Positions 1-9,444 of a stretch of 9,444 bases of DNA are shown here, piece by piece. The stretch spans positions 1 through 9,444 of the IMG/VR virus record IMGVR_UViG_2648501797_000003; one strand, given 5' to 3'. Origin of the DNA: a virus. Taxonomy: Duplodnaviria > Heunggongvirae > Uroviricota > Caudoviricetes. A program made the translations under genes and the position numbers. A model generated the notes under the pieces. The model made no database searches and was not told the origin of the DNA. It was given only the letters and a program-made list of their open reading frames with translations. Each line of letters opens with the position of its first letter. Position 1 is the stretch's first letter.

Positions 1-783
1 CTAAATCATCGCAATGCCGTAATGCTGCCTGATGCGAAATGGTCGCCGGAAACTTAAAACAGAAGCGGAAGTCATCTGTGGTCTGCTCACGCCAGCGCAG
101 GACAACCTCGGGTTCTCAACCGCGCCGATAACCTGTTTCTCTTCTGCGCTTAACGCCACCCAGAATTCCTGATACTTAACAGTTCCAAGGCGTGCGGCAG
201 ACTCGCCTTTTGCGATCAGTTCCGGGCGGCGATCATCCGATTCATGCCCTACATGAACCTCTGTCGCACTCCCTTCAATGACACGTTCGGCTTCGTCCTG
301 ATCGAAGATGCCAGCAAACCCAAATGCGAGACGCGCACACTGGATCAGCGTCTTGTGACGAAGCATACGGGTAGGGTGGGACTGCCATGGCTGAGTGTTG
401 CGTTTGCACTCTCCCATGTACTCAGTAACGATGGTCGGGTGTGTGCGGTCTTTCCGGTATATCTTGCAGGTACACGCGCCTTCTTCCTTGTCGTAGGCAA
501 ACTCCATTCCATCAAACTGAGGATGTTCGTTGATGATTCGAGCCCAGCCGTCAACGCCGACTACAGGAACAATTCCACCTTTATCCGGGAATGCATAAAT
601 CTCTTTTGTCCACGGGTTCAGTCCGTACTGGTTGGCGACGATCAGCAGTGCCGTGAACTGCTCATCAGTGACATTCCCACCCTTAAATGCTGTATTTTTC
701 AGAGTGTTCATCAGGTCAGTTCCGGCATCCATGCCGAGGCGGGAGGCAAGCTTCCCGGCCATTGTAGAAAGTGCTGTGCTCAT
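1..783 (-). CDS. bet: Bet / Red-beta family single-strand annealing recombinase (260 aa)
   Basis: Translation from ATG at 783-781 (MSTALSTMAGKLASRLGMD...LLIVANQYGLNPWTKEIYAFPDK...VPVVGVDGW..RIINE..QFDGM...CTC.IYRKDR.HP...TE.M.EC.....PWQSHP.RMLRHK..IQCARLAFGFAGI.D.DEAER) is near-collinear with lambda Bet as I recall it. SD GAGGGG lies 6 nt upstream of this ATG. Stop TAG is at 3-1. The ORF-track start at 834 adds 17 residues with no homology and overlaps the upstream gene. Confidence 0.9.
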   Translation of the reverse strand: MSTALSTMAGKLASRLGMDAGTDLMNTLKNTAFKGGNVTDEQFTALLIVANQYGLNPWTKEIYAFPDKGGIVPVVGVDGWARIINEHPQFDGMEFAYDKEEGACTCKIYRKDRTHPTIVTEYMGECKRNTQPWQSHPTRMLRHKTLIQCARLAFGFAGIFDQDEAERVIEGSATEVHVGHESDDRRPELIAKGESAARLGTVKYQEFWVALSAEEKQVIGAVENPRLSCAGVSRPQMTSASVLSFRRPFRIRQHYGIAMI

Positions 784-2989: not shown

Positions 2990-3095
2990 CGATTTCCTCG
3001 CCTATGCTCATTTTGCTTTTATCCCCGGGAGGGGCGATAATTACTTAGTCAGTCTGGACAACTGACAACTTTACCCCGGCGCCAAGTGGGGACAC

Positions 3096-3563
3096 ATGGC
3101 GCAAACACTGCAATTTGAGAAAAGTTATCAAAACGTACTGATTCCCGCAGAGCCGGGAACCAGCGAATACCTGCAACTTATCCCCGTAGGGCAACTGCTT
3201 TGCGGTGAGTTCCGCAAGCCCAGGAATTACGCATTCCACAAGAAGTTCTTCAAACTTCTGACTCTCGGGTATCACTACTGGACGCCTTCCGGTGGTCTCA
3301 TTGAGCCCGCGGAGCGTACCCTCATATCCGGTTTTATCGACTTTCTCTCATCCGACCTCGATCAGCGCGCTGCACTCCAGAACGCCGCGGAGATGTATCT
3401 CTCCTCGGTCGGTATATCCCGTTCCCGCGATATGGCGCTGCTGAAACACTTCGAATCCTTCCGCGAGTGGGCAACCATTCAGGCTGGCTTTTATGACGAA
3501 TACCAGATGCCTGACGGCAGCCGTCGTCGTGTCGCAAAGTCGATCTCCTTTCTGGCTCGATGA
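3096..3563 (+). CDS. Hypothetical protein (155 aa), nin-region-like position
   Basis: ORF with ATG 3096 preceded by GTGGGGA. Sequence feels like a conserved enterobacterial prophage protein of unknown function (possibly a DUF-type family), but I cannot name it reliably. Confidence 0.6.
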   Translation: MAQTLQFEKSYQNVLIPAEPGTSEYLQLIPVGQLLCGEFRKPRNYAFHKKFFKLLTLGYHYWTPSGGLIEPAERTLISGFIDFLSSDLDQRAALQNAAEMYLSSVGISRSRDMALLKHFESFREWATIQAGFYDEYQMPDGSRRRVAKSISFLAR

Positions 3564-3650
3564 CCAGCAGGTTGACTACTACAGCGTGAAGAGAATGCCT
3601 GTCGTCAAAGGTGGGCGGCTTGAGCTAACCATTACCGAAATGGAGTCCGC

Positions 3651-3791
3651 ATGAGCCGTGACGTTATCGAACGCATCCGCGACCGCTGGCAAAAGCTTCG
3701 CCTCCTGCGTAGCCGCGGCACCGTGCTGGTCGACTACAAAATATTACGCAATTTCGTCCGTATCTATAAGCGCCTGGGAGAAGCAGCATGA
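3651..3791 (+). CDS. Hypothetical small Arg-rich protein (46 aa), below the ORF-track length cutoff
   Basis: ATG 3651 with SD GGAG (3642-3645) 5 nt upstream; translation MSRDVIERIRDRWQKLRLLRSRGTVLVDYKILRNFVRIYKRLGEAA; its stop TGA (3789-3791) overlaps ATG 3788 of the next gene (ATGA coupling). Confidence 0.35.
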   Translation: MSRDVIERIRDRWQKLRLLRSRGTVLVDYKILRNFVRIYKRLGEAA

Positions 3792-4477
3792 CAGCTCAAT
3801 ACTTGGAATTTGTTCGCCAGCAGCTGATAGTGGCCACCGCCGATCTGAGTGGTGCGACGAAAGGGCAACTGGTAGCTCTTGCAGAGAACGCGCAATTTAC
3901 CGCTACGGCGCGCAGCCGTGGCCGGAAGAAGGTGTATAGCGAGGTGAAGCAAAAAATGGTTAACCCGGATGGACCGCCGATGAGCGGCAGCCAGTCCCGC
4001 GCTAAGGGTTCCTCAATCGCTCTCGTTCTGCCCGTTGAATACTCGACAGCCAGCTGGCGTCGCGCCCTCCTGTCGCTGGAAGACCACCAGAAATCCTGGT
4101 TGCTGTGGAACTACAGCGACAATATCCGCTGGGAGCACCAGGAGACGATAACCCGCTGGGCATGGGAGCAATTCAGCGACAAGCTGGCCGGTGTGCGCAT
4201 TGCAAAGAAAACAGTCGATCGCCTCCGTCAACTTATCTGGCTGGCCGCACAGGACGTCAAAGCCGAGCTGGCAGGACGGGAGACGTATGAATACCAGTCG
4301 CTGGCGGAGCTGGTTGGTGTAGCAAAGTCCACATGGACAGAAACCTACCTCCCTCATTGGCTGGCGCTGCGCAGCAGTTTTGTGAAGCTTGATAGCGACG
4401 CTCTCATGGCGGTAACGCGATCACGTTCACAACAAAAGGCGTCAAATTTAGATGTAAGTCTTGCAAAACCGAACTGA
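3788..4477 (+). CDS. Hypothetical protein (229 aa); candidate late-gene regulator (Q-like by position only)
   Basis: ORF with SD GGGAG 7 nt upstream. It is the last early gene, immediately upstream of a promoter-terminator-tRNA arrangement like lambdoid Q-pR'-tR'. It has no cysteines, so it is not a lambda-Q-type zinc-finger protein. The functional call is inference. Confidence 0.55.
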   Translation: MTAQYLEFVRQQLIVATADLSGATKGQLVALAENAQFTATARSRGRKKVYSEVKQKMVNPDGPPMSGSQSRAKGSSIALVLPVEYSTASWRRALLSLEDHQKSWLLWNYSDNIRWEHQETITRWAWEQFSDKLAGVRIAKKTVDRLRQLIWLAAQDVKAELAGRETYEYQSLAELVGVAKSTWTETYLPHWLALRSSFVKLDSDALMAVTRSRSQQKASNLDVSLAKPN

Positions 4478-4489
4478 AAGGCATATATT
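4461..4489 (+). promoter_or_regulatory. Candidate sigma70 promoter (pR'-like late promoter)
   Basis: -35 TTGCAA (4461-4466), 17-nt spacer, -10 TATATT (4484-4489), overlapping the stop codon of the 229-aa gene; predicted start near 4496, about 50 nt upstream of the terminator hairpin. Confidence 0.35.
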
Positions 4490-4544
4490 TCATGTAAATC
4501 TGATATCGTCGCCATAGCTTCGATTGTCGACACATAAAGAATTC

Positions 4545-4578
4545 AAGCCCGAGGTTAACGCCTTGGGCTTTTTCATTT
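4545..4578 (+). terminator. Intrinsic terminator (tR'-like)
   Basis: 10-bp stem AAGCCCGAGG / CCTTGGGCTT (one G-U pair), 6-nt loop TTAACG, followed by TTTCATTT. Confidence 0.6.
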
Positions 4579-4580
4579 CA

Positions 4581-4655
4581 GGGTCAGAAGCACAGCGGTT
4601 GTGCGTTCGGCTGTTAACCGAATGGTAGAAGGTTCGAATCCTTCCTGTCCCGCCA
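4581..4655 (+). tRNA. tRNA-Asn (anticodon GUU)-like gene, 75 nt including encoded CCA
   Basis: Hand-folded cloverleaf: acceptor 4581-4587 with 4645-4651 (6 bp plus one T-T mismatch), D-stem GCAC/GTGC, anticodon stem TTCGG/CCGAA with loop CTGTTAA (anticodon GTT at 4613-4615), 5-nt variable loop, T-stem GAAGG/CCTTC with canonical T-loop TTCGAAT, discriminator G, CCA. Non-canonical A at position 8. Confidence 0.6.
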
Positions 4656-4661
4656 AATAAT

Positions 4662-4732
4662 GGCCTGACCTGATGACGGGCTCATAATCCAATCCATCAG
4701 GGGCGCTGCTGCAACAGCGTCACAGGCCGCCA
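4662..4732 (+). other. Degenerate tRNA-like remnant (possible decayed tRNA with CAU-type anticodon loop motif)
   Basis: GGCCTGA (4662-4668) pairs with ACAGGCC (4722-4728) and is followed by G-CCA. Inside are a 7-bp hairpin (4669-4675 with 4695-4701) whose loop contains CTCATAA, and a 5-bp hairpin CGCTG/CAGCG (4704-4719). No D-arm and no canonical T-loop. Confidence 0.25.
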
Positions 4733-4789
4733 GACCAAGCCTGGGTATTTTCGGTCATCACCGACATTGCTATTACCCTCATGCTTATT

Positions 4790-4818
4790 GCCTGCCTAAC
4801 CGCAGGCTTTTTTATTTT
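4790..4818 (+). terminator. Intrinsic terminator
   Basis: 6-bp stem GCCTGC / GCAGGC, 6-nt loop, followed by TTTTTTATTTT. Confidence 0.6.
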
Positions 4819-4920
4819 CAGGGTCGCGGGAATCACCCTCGACGCTTTGTTGGTAAATCAGCCCGACGGCCCTGACCTTCTCACACACAGCTTCCCGATC
4901 TTTCATCGGAGGCGGTAACT

Positions 4921-5340
4921 ATGGCTAAGCGTATGCAAGACAAAGAGAGCATTGCCGGGATGTCCTGGCTGGTTCTGCTGATCATTGCTGGTTGGGGCGG
5001 CCTTGTCCGATTCCTGATGGATGTAAAGCAGGGCAAAGCAAAATGGAGCTGGATAAATGCTTTTGCGCAGATTGTGGTTTCGGCTTTTACCGGGGTTATT
5101 GGTGGGCTCATCAGCATTGAAGGTGGCCTGAGTATTTACATGATACTGGCCACTGCCGGTGACCAGGTTAACAGCGAGCTATGGTGGGCGATTCAGAACG
5201 GTTATATGACGGTTAAAGCCGCAGGGGTTCGTGTCCGTGAAATAGAGACCGTCAGTGATGGTTATCAGTTTTTTGGCTTCGATATCGAAAATGACTATAT
5301 CGCTGGCTTCGACCGCGGGTCATGGGGAGAGAGATTTTAA
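4921..5340 (+). CDS. Holin-like small membrane protein (139 aa) with dual-start motif
   Basis: SD GGAGG (4908-4912) 8 nt upstream of ATG 4921. N-terminus M-A-K-R-M (Met1 and Met5 separated by Lys-Arg); hydrophobic helices around residues 11-33 and 43-79; charged C-terminal region. First gene after the late promoter/tRNA region, where lambdoid holins sit. Confidence 0.6.
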   Translation: MAKRMQDKESIAGMSWLVLLIIAGWGGLVRFLMDVKQGKAKWSWINAFAQIVVSAFTGVIGGLISIEGGLSIYMILATAGDQVNSELWWAIQNGYMTVKAAGVRVREIETVSDGYQFFGFDIENDYIAGFDRGSWGERF

Positions 5341-6472: not shown

Positions 6473-8557
6473 ATGAGTGAATACGATACCGGCAATCCTG
6501 TGCCGTCTGCATCAATACCTGATGCATGGGATAATATGCAGTCTATTGACAGGTTCGCTAATAGTAGTGATGAAACTATTACCACGCGTACAGGTAAGCA
6601 GTTAGACACTCTGCATGGCATCAATGTAAAGTCTGATAACCAACTTAATGAACAACAAGATACCTTTGAATTATCTCAATCCGAAAGGGAATCCTCTTTC
6701 GAAGAAAAATCAAATGAATTTGAATCGCGCTTCTCCTCTCAGTTATCGGCGCAGGAATCAACATTTTCAGAATCTCAATCTGATAAAGAAAACCGCTTTC
6801 AGCAGTTCCTGAATACTTCAGGATACGTGTTCCTTGGCGATTATCAGGACGGCCCATTCCAGTTTAGTGCCCGTAACCAGTACATCCGTTACGGCAATGA
6901 GTATTACCGCCTGAATGCTGCTACTGACGTCGGCTTTACGACCACCGGAACCGATGCGACCAGCTTTGCGAACGACGTTACTCACTTCGTTCTGATGGAT
7001 GGTGATACGCTTCGCCAAGACCTGGGTTCAGGCGAAGGAGCAATGAAGGTTTACCGGAACGCCTCACCTCTGGCCAGAATCATTCGCTCCTCGATTTTTG
7101 AATACCTTACTGAAGCTGATCAGCAGGCGTTGCTCACAATTCCTGGCGTTAATGTTATCGCTGACTACGCGTTAAAAAAAGCTATAGCTGATGGAGTGAT
7201 GGTACTGGATATTCCGTGGAATGTCGGTGCGTTAAATTTCGGGCTTGACCCCGCAATGCTTCCATTAGGTTTTCAATTTATAGGGTGGGGTTGCCGACGC
7301 CCATATACAATTGATGACGATAACAGTTTTCTGAATTGCGGAGTCGTCATCCGCGTAGCTGCTGGTGCAAGTTTTCCATTTTATTCAACAGGCAGGCATG
7401 TATTCCGGGATATTGTTTTTGATGGCCGAGATAAAACAACGTACCTTTTTTATTCGCCAAATACTGCAACCCAGTTCAACGGCACCCGACTTGAGGGGTG
7501 TGGATTTTATCGGTTTGCGATCGGGATTGGCTGGGCTTCAGGAGGAACAGCCAGGTACATCGGAACAATGAAAGCATATTTCTGCTCAATATCCGGAAAC
7601 GGGGATGGAGTCAGGAATTTAATAGACTCCATGATGTTTGGTTGCACAATCAATGCTAATGATCGAGGAGTGGCCCTTACCGGTGGGGCAAACAATAACT
7701 TTTTTGGAGGATGCCGGAACGAATGGAACACCGGCGATAACTGGTATGCGTACCAGTCGGTGGAGAACCAGATTTTCGGCGAACTGTGCGACAGGGCCGG
7801 AAGGGGAGGTGTGGTCGCCGGGGCGAAATCCTCATGGATTTTAAACGGCGTTAACGTCCGGCGCAGTGGTGCTAATCAACCCGTGGGTAATGACTATTCC
7901 GCAAACTTTATTATTATTGATGACGGTAAAATTGAACTCTCAGGGGTAAGAACTGGTGTCGGTGCGAATGACAGCGGTGACGGAGGGACAATCTCGCCAT
8001 CCTACAACGTATCAGCTCTTGGCTCTGGCGGGGGGACCTTGCAGGTTTCCGGAAGTGACATGACTGGTTTTGTTACTTCAGCAATTAACCAGAAGGCGAC
8101 CACGTTAAATAAGTCGATAACCGGCAACCTTGGTATGGACGACGATGTAAATATTGGTATGACCCAGGTTGTTAAAGGCAGGCGAATTATTGGTTCACAG
8201 TCATCAGGTACGTTAGCAGGCTCTGCGGGCGCAACGTTATCGCTGACCAAGACCAACATATTCCAGAATTATTTCGATACATATATTACCCGTTCAATCC
8301 TAATTGAATGTCGAATTGGTAGCCAGTCATTTGGTGACGATATTAAAATTCCCGTCAGATTCAGAAGGGAGAATCTTTATTATCTGGATATCCTGACCTC
8401 GGGAATTGTTGCCAGCTCTGCACGCATTGGGCTTTCAGGGACTGGCGTAACGGTATCATTGTCCATTAACAGCTCAACCGGTCTGGTTACTGTTCAGTTG
8501 ACAAATGTTGATGGTCTGGAAAGAACCGTTAATGTATCAATGTTGCCCTCAATGTAG
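6473..8557 (+). CDS. Tail-fibre / tailspike-like protein (694 aa); probable receptor-binding protein with beta-helix-like body
   Basis: Long ORF. N-terminal acidic Ser/Glu/Phe repeats with roughly 11-residue spacing of Phe (TFELSQSERESSFEEKSNEFESRFSSQLSAQESTFSESQSDKENRF), typical of fibre coiled-coils; central and C-terminal Gly/Asn/Ser/Thr-rich stretches resembling beta-helix tailspike proteins. No specific family confirmed. Confidence 0.7.
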   Translation: MSEYDTGNPVPSASIPDAWDNMQSIDRFANSSDETITTRTGKQLDTLHGINVKSDNQLNEQQDTFELSQSERESSFEEKSNEFESRFSSQLSAQESTFSESQSDKENRFQQFLNTSGYVFLGDYQDGPFQFSARNQYIRYGNEYYRLNAATDVGFTTTGTDATSFANDVTHFVLMDGDTLRQDLGSGEGAMKVYRNASPLARIIRSSIFEYLTEADQQALLTIPGVNVIADYALKKAIADGVMVLDIPWNVGALNFGLDPAMLPLGFQFIGWGCRRPYTIDDDNSFLNCGVVIRVAAGASFPFYSTGRHVFRDIVFDGRDKTTYLFYSPNTATQFNGTRLEGCGFYRFAIGIGWASGGTARYIGTMKAYFCSISGNGDGVRNLIDSMMFGCTINANDRGVALTGGANNNFFGGCRNEWNTGDNWYAYQSVENQIFGELCDRAGRGGVVAGAKSSWILNGVNVRRSGANQPVGNDYSANFIIIDDGKIELSGVRTGVGANDSGDGGTISPSYNVSALGSGGGTLQVSGSDMTGFVTSAINQKATTLNKSITGNLGMDDDVNIGMTQVVKGRRIIGSQSSGTLAGSAGATLSLTKTNIFQNYFDTYITRSILIECRIGSQSFGDDIKIPVRFRRENLYYLDILTSGIVASSARIGLSGTGVTVSLSINSSTGLVTVQLTNVDGLERTVNVSMLPSM

Positions 8558-8565
8558 GAGTGAAA

Positions 8566-8745
8566 ATGGAAGACGAAACAGAACTGACCGAACCGCCATT
8601 TGAAACCTGGTTCAGAGACGTGGTTGAACTGGTTAAAAATGGCGGACATTCAATGGATATTGTTGCCTATAAGGGGGAATGGGTTGATTATTTTTCGGAA
8701 GGATTAACACCAGAAGATGCGTTTATAAAAAGAATGGCTCTTTAA
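8566..8745 (+). CDS. Hypothetical small acidic protein (59 aa from ATG 8566)
   Basis: SD AGGAG (8556-8560) overlaps the stop of the 694-aa gene, 5 nt upstream of ATG 8566; very acidic (MEDETELTEPPFETWFRDVVELV...). Confidence 0.5.
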   Translation: MEDETELTEPPFETWFRDVVELVKNGGHSMDIVAYKGEWVDYFSEGLTPEDAFIKRMAL

Positions 8746-8858
8746 ATAACCGACCGAAAATAAATGTCAGGGAGTAACGTATTGATAATTTTCGACAAAA
8801 CGGCAGAGCATAGTGAAAACCGCCTGTGGATGATGGCCAACATGGGGAGGATTCTGTA

Positions 8859-9176
8859 ATGGGCTTTCCATCACCCGCGACGGATTACACGGAACAGCGA
8901 TTAACGGTTAACTCGATCTGCAATGTCGGTCCAAATACGCGCCTCTTCGAGCAATCTGGCGGTTACGTTGTGCTGGATGTCTCCCTGAAACCAAAGCAGG
9001 CCAGTCAGGTTCTGATCCAGCACGGCGGCGGGACGGAGCTTGCCACGCTGAGAGGAAGGTCGCTGATTACCGAAGATGGTGAAGCGATCGAGGGCGAGGC
9101 CCTGGACGATGTTACTGTCATCGGTGTAGTGACGTTTACTATCTGCGATGTGCGCCAGGACAATGCGGTTGTTTAG
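8859..9176 (+). CDS. UmuD'-like protein lacking the N-terminal pro-peptide (HumD-like; 105 aa)
   Basis: SD GGAGG (8846-8850) 8 nt upstream of ATG 8859. N-terminus MGFPSPATDYTEQRLTVNSIC matches the UmuD segment GFPSPAADYVEQRIDLNQLL that begins at the Cys24-Gly25 self-cleavage site (13 of 20 identical by my recall). C-terminal TVIGVVTFTI resembles UmuD DVFGVVIHVV. No GDSM serine motif seen and no umuC-like ORF downstream. Confidence 0.65.
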   Translation: MGFPSPATDYTEQRLTVNSICNVGPNTRLFEQSGGYVVLDVSLKPKQASQVLIQHGGGTELATLRGRSLITEDGEAIEGEALDDVTVIGVVTFTICDVRQDNAVV

Positions 9177-9339
9177 TTGCAGTCAATTGATGGAAGATTT
9201 CGCGTGGCAGGCGTCTTGGGGCATGGGTGGGGCATGAGAAATCAGTGAATTTCGCCAAACATTGCAAACAACGTATGTTGGATGCTATCTCCAGCCATTA
9301 AAAATGGCGCTCCTGGACGATATTTGTCGATTTTTAAAT

Positions 9340-9444
9340 TTACCGCGTCACGCAGTTAAAGTGGCGGGCATACTCTTCAAGGCTGGTGATCCCCAACCGC
9401 ACCCATTTAGGATGCGACCATTGCGGTAGACCGATGTAAATCAT
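9340..9444 (-). pseudogene. 5' fragment (34 codons plus stop) of a DUF72 / YecE-like host gene, apparently interrupted
   Basis: Minus-strand translation from ATG at 9444-9442: MIYIGLPQWSHPKWVRLGITSLEEYARHFNCV then TR-stop. This matches my recollection of the E. coli YecE (DUF72) N-terminus, which should continue EGNTT...; divergence begins near 9348. Identification from memory. Confidence 0.45.

Follow-up and report, generated by a model that had tools for sequence, protein, structure and literature searches.

The window, which is the whole stretch of 9,444 nucleotides that was analysed, carries a piece of the host gene yecE at each end and phage genes between them (Table 1). The phage genes that remain include bet, gam, Q, a tail fibre gene and a UmuD'-like gene. 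The sequence-only reading had placed a UmuD'-like and a tailspike-like gene nearest to the right junction, and both names were supported, the first by the similarity to UmuD' (E ~5e-4) and the second by the similarity to the 7xy1 tail fibre (E 3.7e-46). A small RNA similar to isrJ, an Hfq-binding sRNA, was identified with Rfam (57.1 bits, gathering score 37) at 4493-4571, directly upstream of a tRNA at 4581-4652. The latter is annotated in RefSeq as tRNA-Asn, and both follow the Q antiterminator gene.

Table 1. Position, strand and basis of the features assigned in the window.
Feature	Position	Strand	Basis
yecE internal part, codons 43 (partial)-80	1-114	minus	100% identical to K-12-type locus L002 2356-2469
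bet (RecT family) without its last 76 nt, left end of the remnant	113-834	minus	RecT E 1.6e-27; blastn against KFu024 bet
Tail fibre or tailspike gene	6473-8557	plus	Residues 207-606 against 7xy1_A, phage type I tail fibre, E 3.7e-46
UmuD'-like gene, last phage gene before attR	8859-9176	plus	PDB-sequence match to 8gmt_B (E 4.7e-4) and 1umu_A (E 5.3e-4)
Non-coding P arm of attP, kept in attR	9177-9348		Contiguous with core, P' arm and int in Mulock
Tandem pair TGGGGCATG-gg-TGGGGCATG, 11-bp period, candidate arm-type Int sites of the P arm	9217-9236	plus	Exact-copy search
Core-proximal block GGCGCTCCTGGACGATATTTGTCGATTTTTAAA	9306-9338		Columns conserved in all aligned attPs
Phage-derived codons T and R plus TAA stop, end of the 34-codon ORF	9340-9348	minus	Translation; divergence from attB starts here
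yecE (DUF72) 5' fragment, codons 1-32	9349-9444	minus	ATG at 9444-9442
21-bp att core CACGCAGTTAAAGTGGCGGGC	9349-9369		Three-way comparison of attB, attR and attL

The protein of ORF 8859-9176 starts with MGFPSPATDY and is aligned to UmuD from the post-cleavage Gly25, through residues 2-43 only (E ~5e-4). After its Met it begins exactly at the first residue of processed UmuD', and a Val is aligned to the catalytic Ser60 of UmuD. No Pfam family was found for this ORF at E up to 0.01, the S24 domain included, and none for ORF 6473-8557. Judged by its N-terminal segment the UmuD'-like label is fair, and the protein is not classed as an S24 peptidase. It could be a pre-processed UmuD' analogue incapable of self-cleavage. 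Its homologues are annotated as UmuD-like in related Klebsiella phages. The segment that follows the UmuD'-like gene, 9177-9348, has no gene annotated in RefSeq; a search of 8700-9444 for promoter-like and terminator-like sites gave nothing, and Rfam identified no family in the att region, its only matches being the tRNA and the isrJ-like sRNA far upstream.

At its right end the window carries 96 nt from the start of E. coli yecE, 100% identical to the annotated gene in thousands of E. coli genomes. In the matching genomes this fragment lies directly downstream of yecD, the stop codon of which overlaps the yecE ATG. Its length does not allow a Pfam domain to be called, and its identity rests on the sequence and on the neighbouring yecD. 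In RefSeq it is a partial CDS with the C-terminus missing, and yecE is annotated as two partial genes because a defective prophage interrupts it. The minus strand of 9340-9444 is translated as MIYIGLPQWSHPKWVRLGITSLEEYARHFNCV followed by TR and a stop, the full product of 34 residues being MIYIGLPQWSHPKWVRLGITSLEEYARHFNCVTR. The sequence-only reading had described this ORF as the start of a DUF72/YecE protein ending in TR-stop, and this is what it is: 32 YecE codons plus TR, with 32 of 32 residues identical to YecE residues 1-32 of a K-12-type genome.

The extent of the host sequence was established by megablast, with window 9100-9444 (345 bp) as the query and 5426 complete E. coli genomes as the target. 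Matches were obtained in 5420 genomes, 9349-9444 matching annotated yecE. In the genomes with an intact yecE only query positions 250-345 are covered, equivalent to window 9349-9444, so that the edge of identity at query position 250 is window 9349. The comparison of 9300-9444 with E. coli yecE proposed earlier is covered by this search, which gives identity to yecE from 9349 on. The edge of the element, expected at about 9340-9360, lies exactly at 9348/9349, where identity to yecE breaks off sharply with phage DNA beyond, and the core occupies 9349-9369. In 82 genomes the same junction is present, with 80% or more of the 345-bp query matched. The corresponding empty site, a region of 161 bp, is uninterrupted in 4903 of 5423 E. 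coli genomes, and this spot of yecE is disrupted in about 9.6% of the complete genomes.

A plain pseudogene, its TR-stop due to a point mutation or a frameshift and not to a mobile element, would account for an ORF that stops early, after 34 codons. This explanation is next to impossible: identity shows no gradual decay and stops abruptly at 9348/9349, the DNA beyond is continuous with phage genes and with an attP arm as found in free phages, and the rest of yecE is found 9.2 kb away, on the far side of the element. No continuation of yecE in another frame was found, and the 27-kb source-type locus lacks the 31 bp that come next in the gene.

In a three-way comparison the core, CACGCAGTTAAAGTGGCGGGC, is the segment that the right and left junctions have in common with the empty site (attB, in the K-12-type locus L002). 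The copy in the window is identical to positions 2501-2521 of the attB locus and encodes YecE residues 26-32 (ARHFNCV). One copy is present in the window, one in the empty site and two in strain KFu024. Strand exchange takes place somewhere within these 21 bp, any more exact position being presumptive. The first 11 bp of the core are the att of phage phiP27, CACGCAGTTAA, as given in its GenBank annotation; the phiP27 record opens with this annotated 11-bp attL, aligned to the first base of the core.

The identical junction bounds a complete prophage of 42.7 kb in strain KFu024 (NZ_CP091659), in which the two cores are located at 3666 and 46390 of the extracted locus (L001), 42,724 bp apart. 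The gene order is cmoB-cmoA-yecN-'yecE-int-xis-...-bet-gam-...-cI-cro-cII-O/P-like in the left part and ...-Q-lysis-head-contractile tail-baseplate-tail fibre-UmuD'-like-yecE'-yecD in the right part, with int and xis adjoining attL. The integrase contains the arm-DNA-binding domain PF12167 (E 5.5e-24) and the tyrosine-recombinase catalytic domain PF00589 and is 77% identical to that of phiP27, and the excisionase carries PF06806. Window positions ~2998-5159 have no match in KFu024, so that its prophage is regarded as a mosaic relative rather than the direct ancestor. At attL of KFu024 (L001 2943-3722) RefSeq annotates a hybrid DUF72 protein of 259 aa, with its first 12 residues, MRMIKISKLVHH, encoded by the phage; its start codon shares bases with the stop codon of the integrase gene (ATGA). 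In this way a new start for the truncated yecE and the downstream yecN-cmoA-cmoB may be provided by the phage in KFu024, the hybrid being a putative product.

The phage attachment site was reconstructed from the P arm of the window, the core and the P' arm of KFu024 (487 bp). Klebsiella phage Mulock (MN098327, 24584-25070) matches 100% of this attP without interruption at 94.7% identity, in the middle of its genome and adjacent to the integrase and excisionase genes. Therefore 9177-9348 is the P arm of attP, and 9177-9444 is a genuine attR. Another phage, Klebsiella phage vB_VIPKPNMC05, was considered as the source of a native attP and rejected, as its core runs into Klebsiella host DNA similar to yecE/yecD, that is, an attR. 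Midway through its record, deposited as a complete phage genome (PQ351753.1, L004 3334-3446), the P arm is followed by the core and then by host DNA; the record thus has attR and not attP, and is probably prophage-derived or misassembled.

The junction at 9348/9349 might be read as the scar of an illegitimate deletion or insertion, left by a transposon or by random recombination, given that the integrase is absent from the window and that the other end of the element, at 113/114, is precisely such a scar with a 2-bp microhomology. This is very improbable for the right end, where the junction is base for base the one that bounds intact prophages with int, xis and a duplicated 21-bp core, and coincides with the annotated phiP27 att; in Mulock, moreover, P arm, core and P' arm are uninterrupted. 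In addition, no transposase or terminal inverted repeats were found at the junction, and the 82 genomes share one position and not scattered ones. The early proposal of an integration junction in yecE is sustained, as the host identity stops at the core common to attB, attR and attL. We regard it as almost certain that 9177-9444 is attR, the right-hand junction of a decayed phiP27-type prophage in yecE.

The left end of the element is a truncated bet joined to yecE. The internal part of yecE at window 1-114 runs on leftwards past the window edge, and the 225-aa DUF72 CDS of RefSeq reaches window position 100. The blastn segments of yecE and bet overlap by 2 bp (TT) at 113/114, and the Bet frame reads on through the yecE DNA, out of the yecE frame, to a stop at window 1-3. 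This point is an illegitimate deletion scar with TT microhomology and not attL. Compared with KFu024, 4196 bp are missing, comprising 31 bp of yecE, the attL core, int, xis and exo, and it is because of this 4.2-kb deletion that no attL core, int or xis is present here. The window contains both ends of a 9.2-kb defective prophage, which nearly fills it, with a precise attR on the right and a deletion scar on the left.

The whole window is matched by four genomes, at 100.0% as reported, with the deletion junction at 113/114; one of them, B18271, differs from the window at 2 positions. In its annotation yecN and the 225-aa DUF72 CDS are followed directly by bet and gam, some early genes, Q and a tRNA; beyond these a holin fragment adjoins a DUF2612 fragment, and the series ends with the tail-fibre genes, the UmuD'-like gene, the 5' fragment of yecE and yecD. 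The rest of yecE and an integrase had been expected at the other end of the element: the former is there (window 1-114), and no integrase or excisionase was found in the window or in the B18271 locus, where the truncated bet is likewise joined to yecE. Similarly, a direct-repeat core shared by both junctions holds for KFu024 (two copies) and not for the remnant, with no second core and a single copy each in the window and in the 27-kb B18271 locus. By the established requirements of lambda-type excision the remnant would be unable to excise site-specifically, being immobile because it has no integrase, no excisionase and only one core.

Two further discontinuities with KFu024 were observed inside the remnant. 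At 2137-2151 about 7.8 kb of immunity and replication genes are skipped, the matching segments overlapping by 15 bp, and at 5159/5160 a holin fragment is joined to a DUF2612 fragment, all the lysis, head and tail genes being gone. In another of the four genomes (NZ_CM148361.1, 1948578-1960997) an ISEcp1-blaCTX-M-15 unit is inserted inside the remnant, and the window is matched in two pieces spanning 12.4 kb.

The P arm contains a short tandem repeat. The sequence-only reading had noticed a duplicated octamer and misplaced it at 9208-9215 and 9218-9225, the actual copies of GGGGCATG being at 9218-9225 and 9229-9236. The repeat extends to the 9-mer TGGGGCATG, at 9217-9225 and 9228-9236 with a spacing of 11 bp. 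These are the sole exact copies in the window, about 0.07 being expected by chance in 2 x 9444 positions. With one mismatch allowed, 4 copies were found in the window against 3.1 expected, which is chance level.

The same arrangement was recognised in an alignment of eight attP-type sequences: this phage, Mulock, RCIP0034, KPP5665-2, CharmingMan, phi330, the PPompW/Stx2_EH1910 junction and phiP27. One of them, Stx2_EH1910, represents a prophage-in-prophage junction instead of a free attP. Between groups the arms align poorly, and the cores of several sequences differ. In all eight, TGGGRCA motifs are paired at a spacing of 11 bp, one pair lying at about -132/-121 relative to the start of the core and the other at about +75/+86, and the pairs of both arms have one orientation. 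Variants are found within this layout: the P-arm pair is 3 bp further out in CharmingMan and phiP27, which also have an extra pair near -176/-165; the P' pair of phi330 is at +94/+105, 19 bp further out; and at -143 the motif is present a third time in phi330 and the PPompW junction. A search for the pattern TGGGRCA-N4-TGGGRCA gave one match in the window, two in the KFu024 locus (49 kb) and three in the phiP27 genome (42.6 kb), all of them at most ~190 bp from an att end; the single motif is present at about the random rate. Since the P' copies coincide with the final integrase codons (PSMPH / PMMSH), protein coding could account for part of their conservation.

The TGGGRCA pairs are most likely arm-type Int-binding sites, and we treat them as candidates; this reading follows from the dedicated arm-binding domain, PF12167, of the integrase. 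The octamer noticed earlier would then be the P-arm pair of these putative sites. A literature search on the arm-type sites of Stx or phiP27-type integrases gave a general review only.

It is conceivable, and in our view unlikely, that the duplication of TGGGGCATG is a functionless repeat due to chance or slippage, or that it binds another factor, for example an excisionase, and not the Int arm domain. The window has two copies only, and tandem direct repeats of the P arm are also targets of lambda-type excisionases, as X1/X2 are in lambda. A repeat without function would hardly be expected as pairs at ~-132/-121 and ~+75/+86, in the same orientation, in eight sequences otherwise poorly alignable, with further upstream pairs added in some phages and the pattern absent elsewhere in the searched loci of 42-49 kb. 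Presence in both arms is what is expected of arm-type Int sites, whereas the Xis sites of lambda are confined to the P arm.

Closer to the core, the block at 9306-9338 may be the site of a DNA-bending or accessory protein, as suggested by its conserved columns; the best candidate for an IHF consensus within it, searched by eye, has 2 mismatches. In other E. coli yecE prophages (H2 and H3) window positions 9290/9309-9348 are matched at 91-92% identity.

The following history is proposed for the element. A temperate phage would have integrated into codons 26-32 of E. coli yecE by means of a lambda-type tyrosine integrase of the phiP27 family, recombining the 21-bp identity segment CACGCAGTTAAAGTGGCGGGC that attP has in common with attB. 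The core would then have had on its left the phage P arm, with its tandem TGGGGCATG pair one helical turn apart, and on its right the 5' end of yecE; the repeats would most likely be the sites bound by the N-terminal domain of the integrase. The prophage would later have decayed, through the 4.2-kb deletion that took 31 bp of yecE, attL, int, xis and exo and through further losses of the immunity/replication region and of lysis, head and tail genes, until a 9.2-kb element remained that could no longer be excised. Of this history, the sequences themselves show the right junction with its core, the empty site, the int-bearing relative that is intact, the free-phage attP and the deletion junction. 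The site-specific origin rests on the comparison with relatives, because the window is without integrase, excisionase and second core.

Lambda provides the general model of such a structure, its attP and attR having a P arm with arm-type Int, Xis and IHF sites followed by the core and, in attP, by the P' arm. The system resembles lambda in the tyrosine integrase with a separate arm-binding domain, in the excisionase next to int, in the repeats of both arms around a short identity core and in the P arm kept in attR. It differs in the arm motif, TGGGRCA here as opposed to the lambda arm consensus, with protein-DNA contacts that here are predicted; in the identity segment, of 15 bp in lambda and 21 bp here; and in the target, which lies inside a protein-coding gene, with a P' arm that overlaps the 3' end of int.

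Among the closest of the described systems is phiP27, an Stx2e phage that also occupies yecE (AJ298298; Recktenwald and Schmidt 2002, cited in PMC8065619). Both have the same target gene, an att starting at the same base, int and xis adjoining attL and TGGGRCA pairs in both arms, with 77% Int identity in KFu024. By integrase identity and att position the element belongs to the phiP27 group of yecE-integrating phages. The differences are an identity segment of 11 bp in phiP27 and 21 bp here; an unrelated phage body, similar here to that of the Klebsiella temperate phages Mulock, RothC and ST16-OXA48phi5.2; and the absence here of stx genes, the element being a 9.2-kb remnant without int or attL. 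That yecE is a known phage integration site, as the sequence-only reading stated, is backed by two sources: it is listed among the Stx-phage integration sites (PMC8065619), and Nakamura et al. 2021 described Stx1a/Stx2a prophages at yecE with a 21-bp att there and called the gene an integration hot spot (PMC8112680). Their att agrees with the present one in length and gene, by which it was matched, the published sequence being given in figures; the element described here is neither an Stx phage nor a lambda-like PPompW. Defective or "grounded" prophages without int and att have been described by Ramisetty and Sudhakari 2019 (PMC6379469), and the remnant is typical of them, with attL, int, xis and most morphogenesis genes lost, the remnant fixed in place with few genes, and no difference in kind.

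The attB inside PPompW prophages has been proposed to derive from an attR-like structure formed by a phage arm, the core and yecE-derived DNA (PMC8112680). To the left of the internal attB of PPompW_EH1910 (LC567834.1, L011 1-1579) a TGGGRCA triplet and a core-proximal block were identified, both the same as in the phi330 P arm. This internal attB looks like a captured attR-type structure, in agreement with the yecE origin proposed in the same paper.

An attR-type junction in yecE is an ordinary finding, the phenomenon being already known, and the value of the present analysis is chiefly that of a correct annotation and little beyond. The exact ends of the defective prophage are fixed, at 113/114 on the left and by the core at 9349-9369 on the right. 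The description of the core and arm sites helps to call prophage ends at yecE, Stx phages included, since about one in ten complete E. coli genomes is disrupted there. The one mildly new element is the conserved layout of the arm repeats, which by sequence comparison would be a small addition for the phiP27-type integrases. The chances seem evenly balanced that the TGGGRCA pairs constitute an undescribed arm-type code of the whole PF12167 phiP27-like Int family across different cores, and that the orphan attR of this remnant, with its phage arm, intact 21-bp core and yecE, may also still serve as a landing site for incoming yecE-specific phages. Structures of this kind are those proposed to have given rise to attB inside other prophages.
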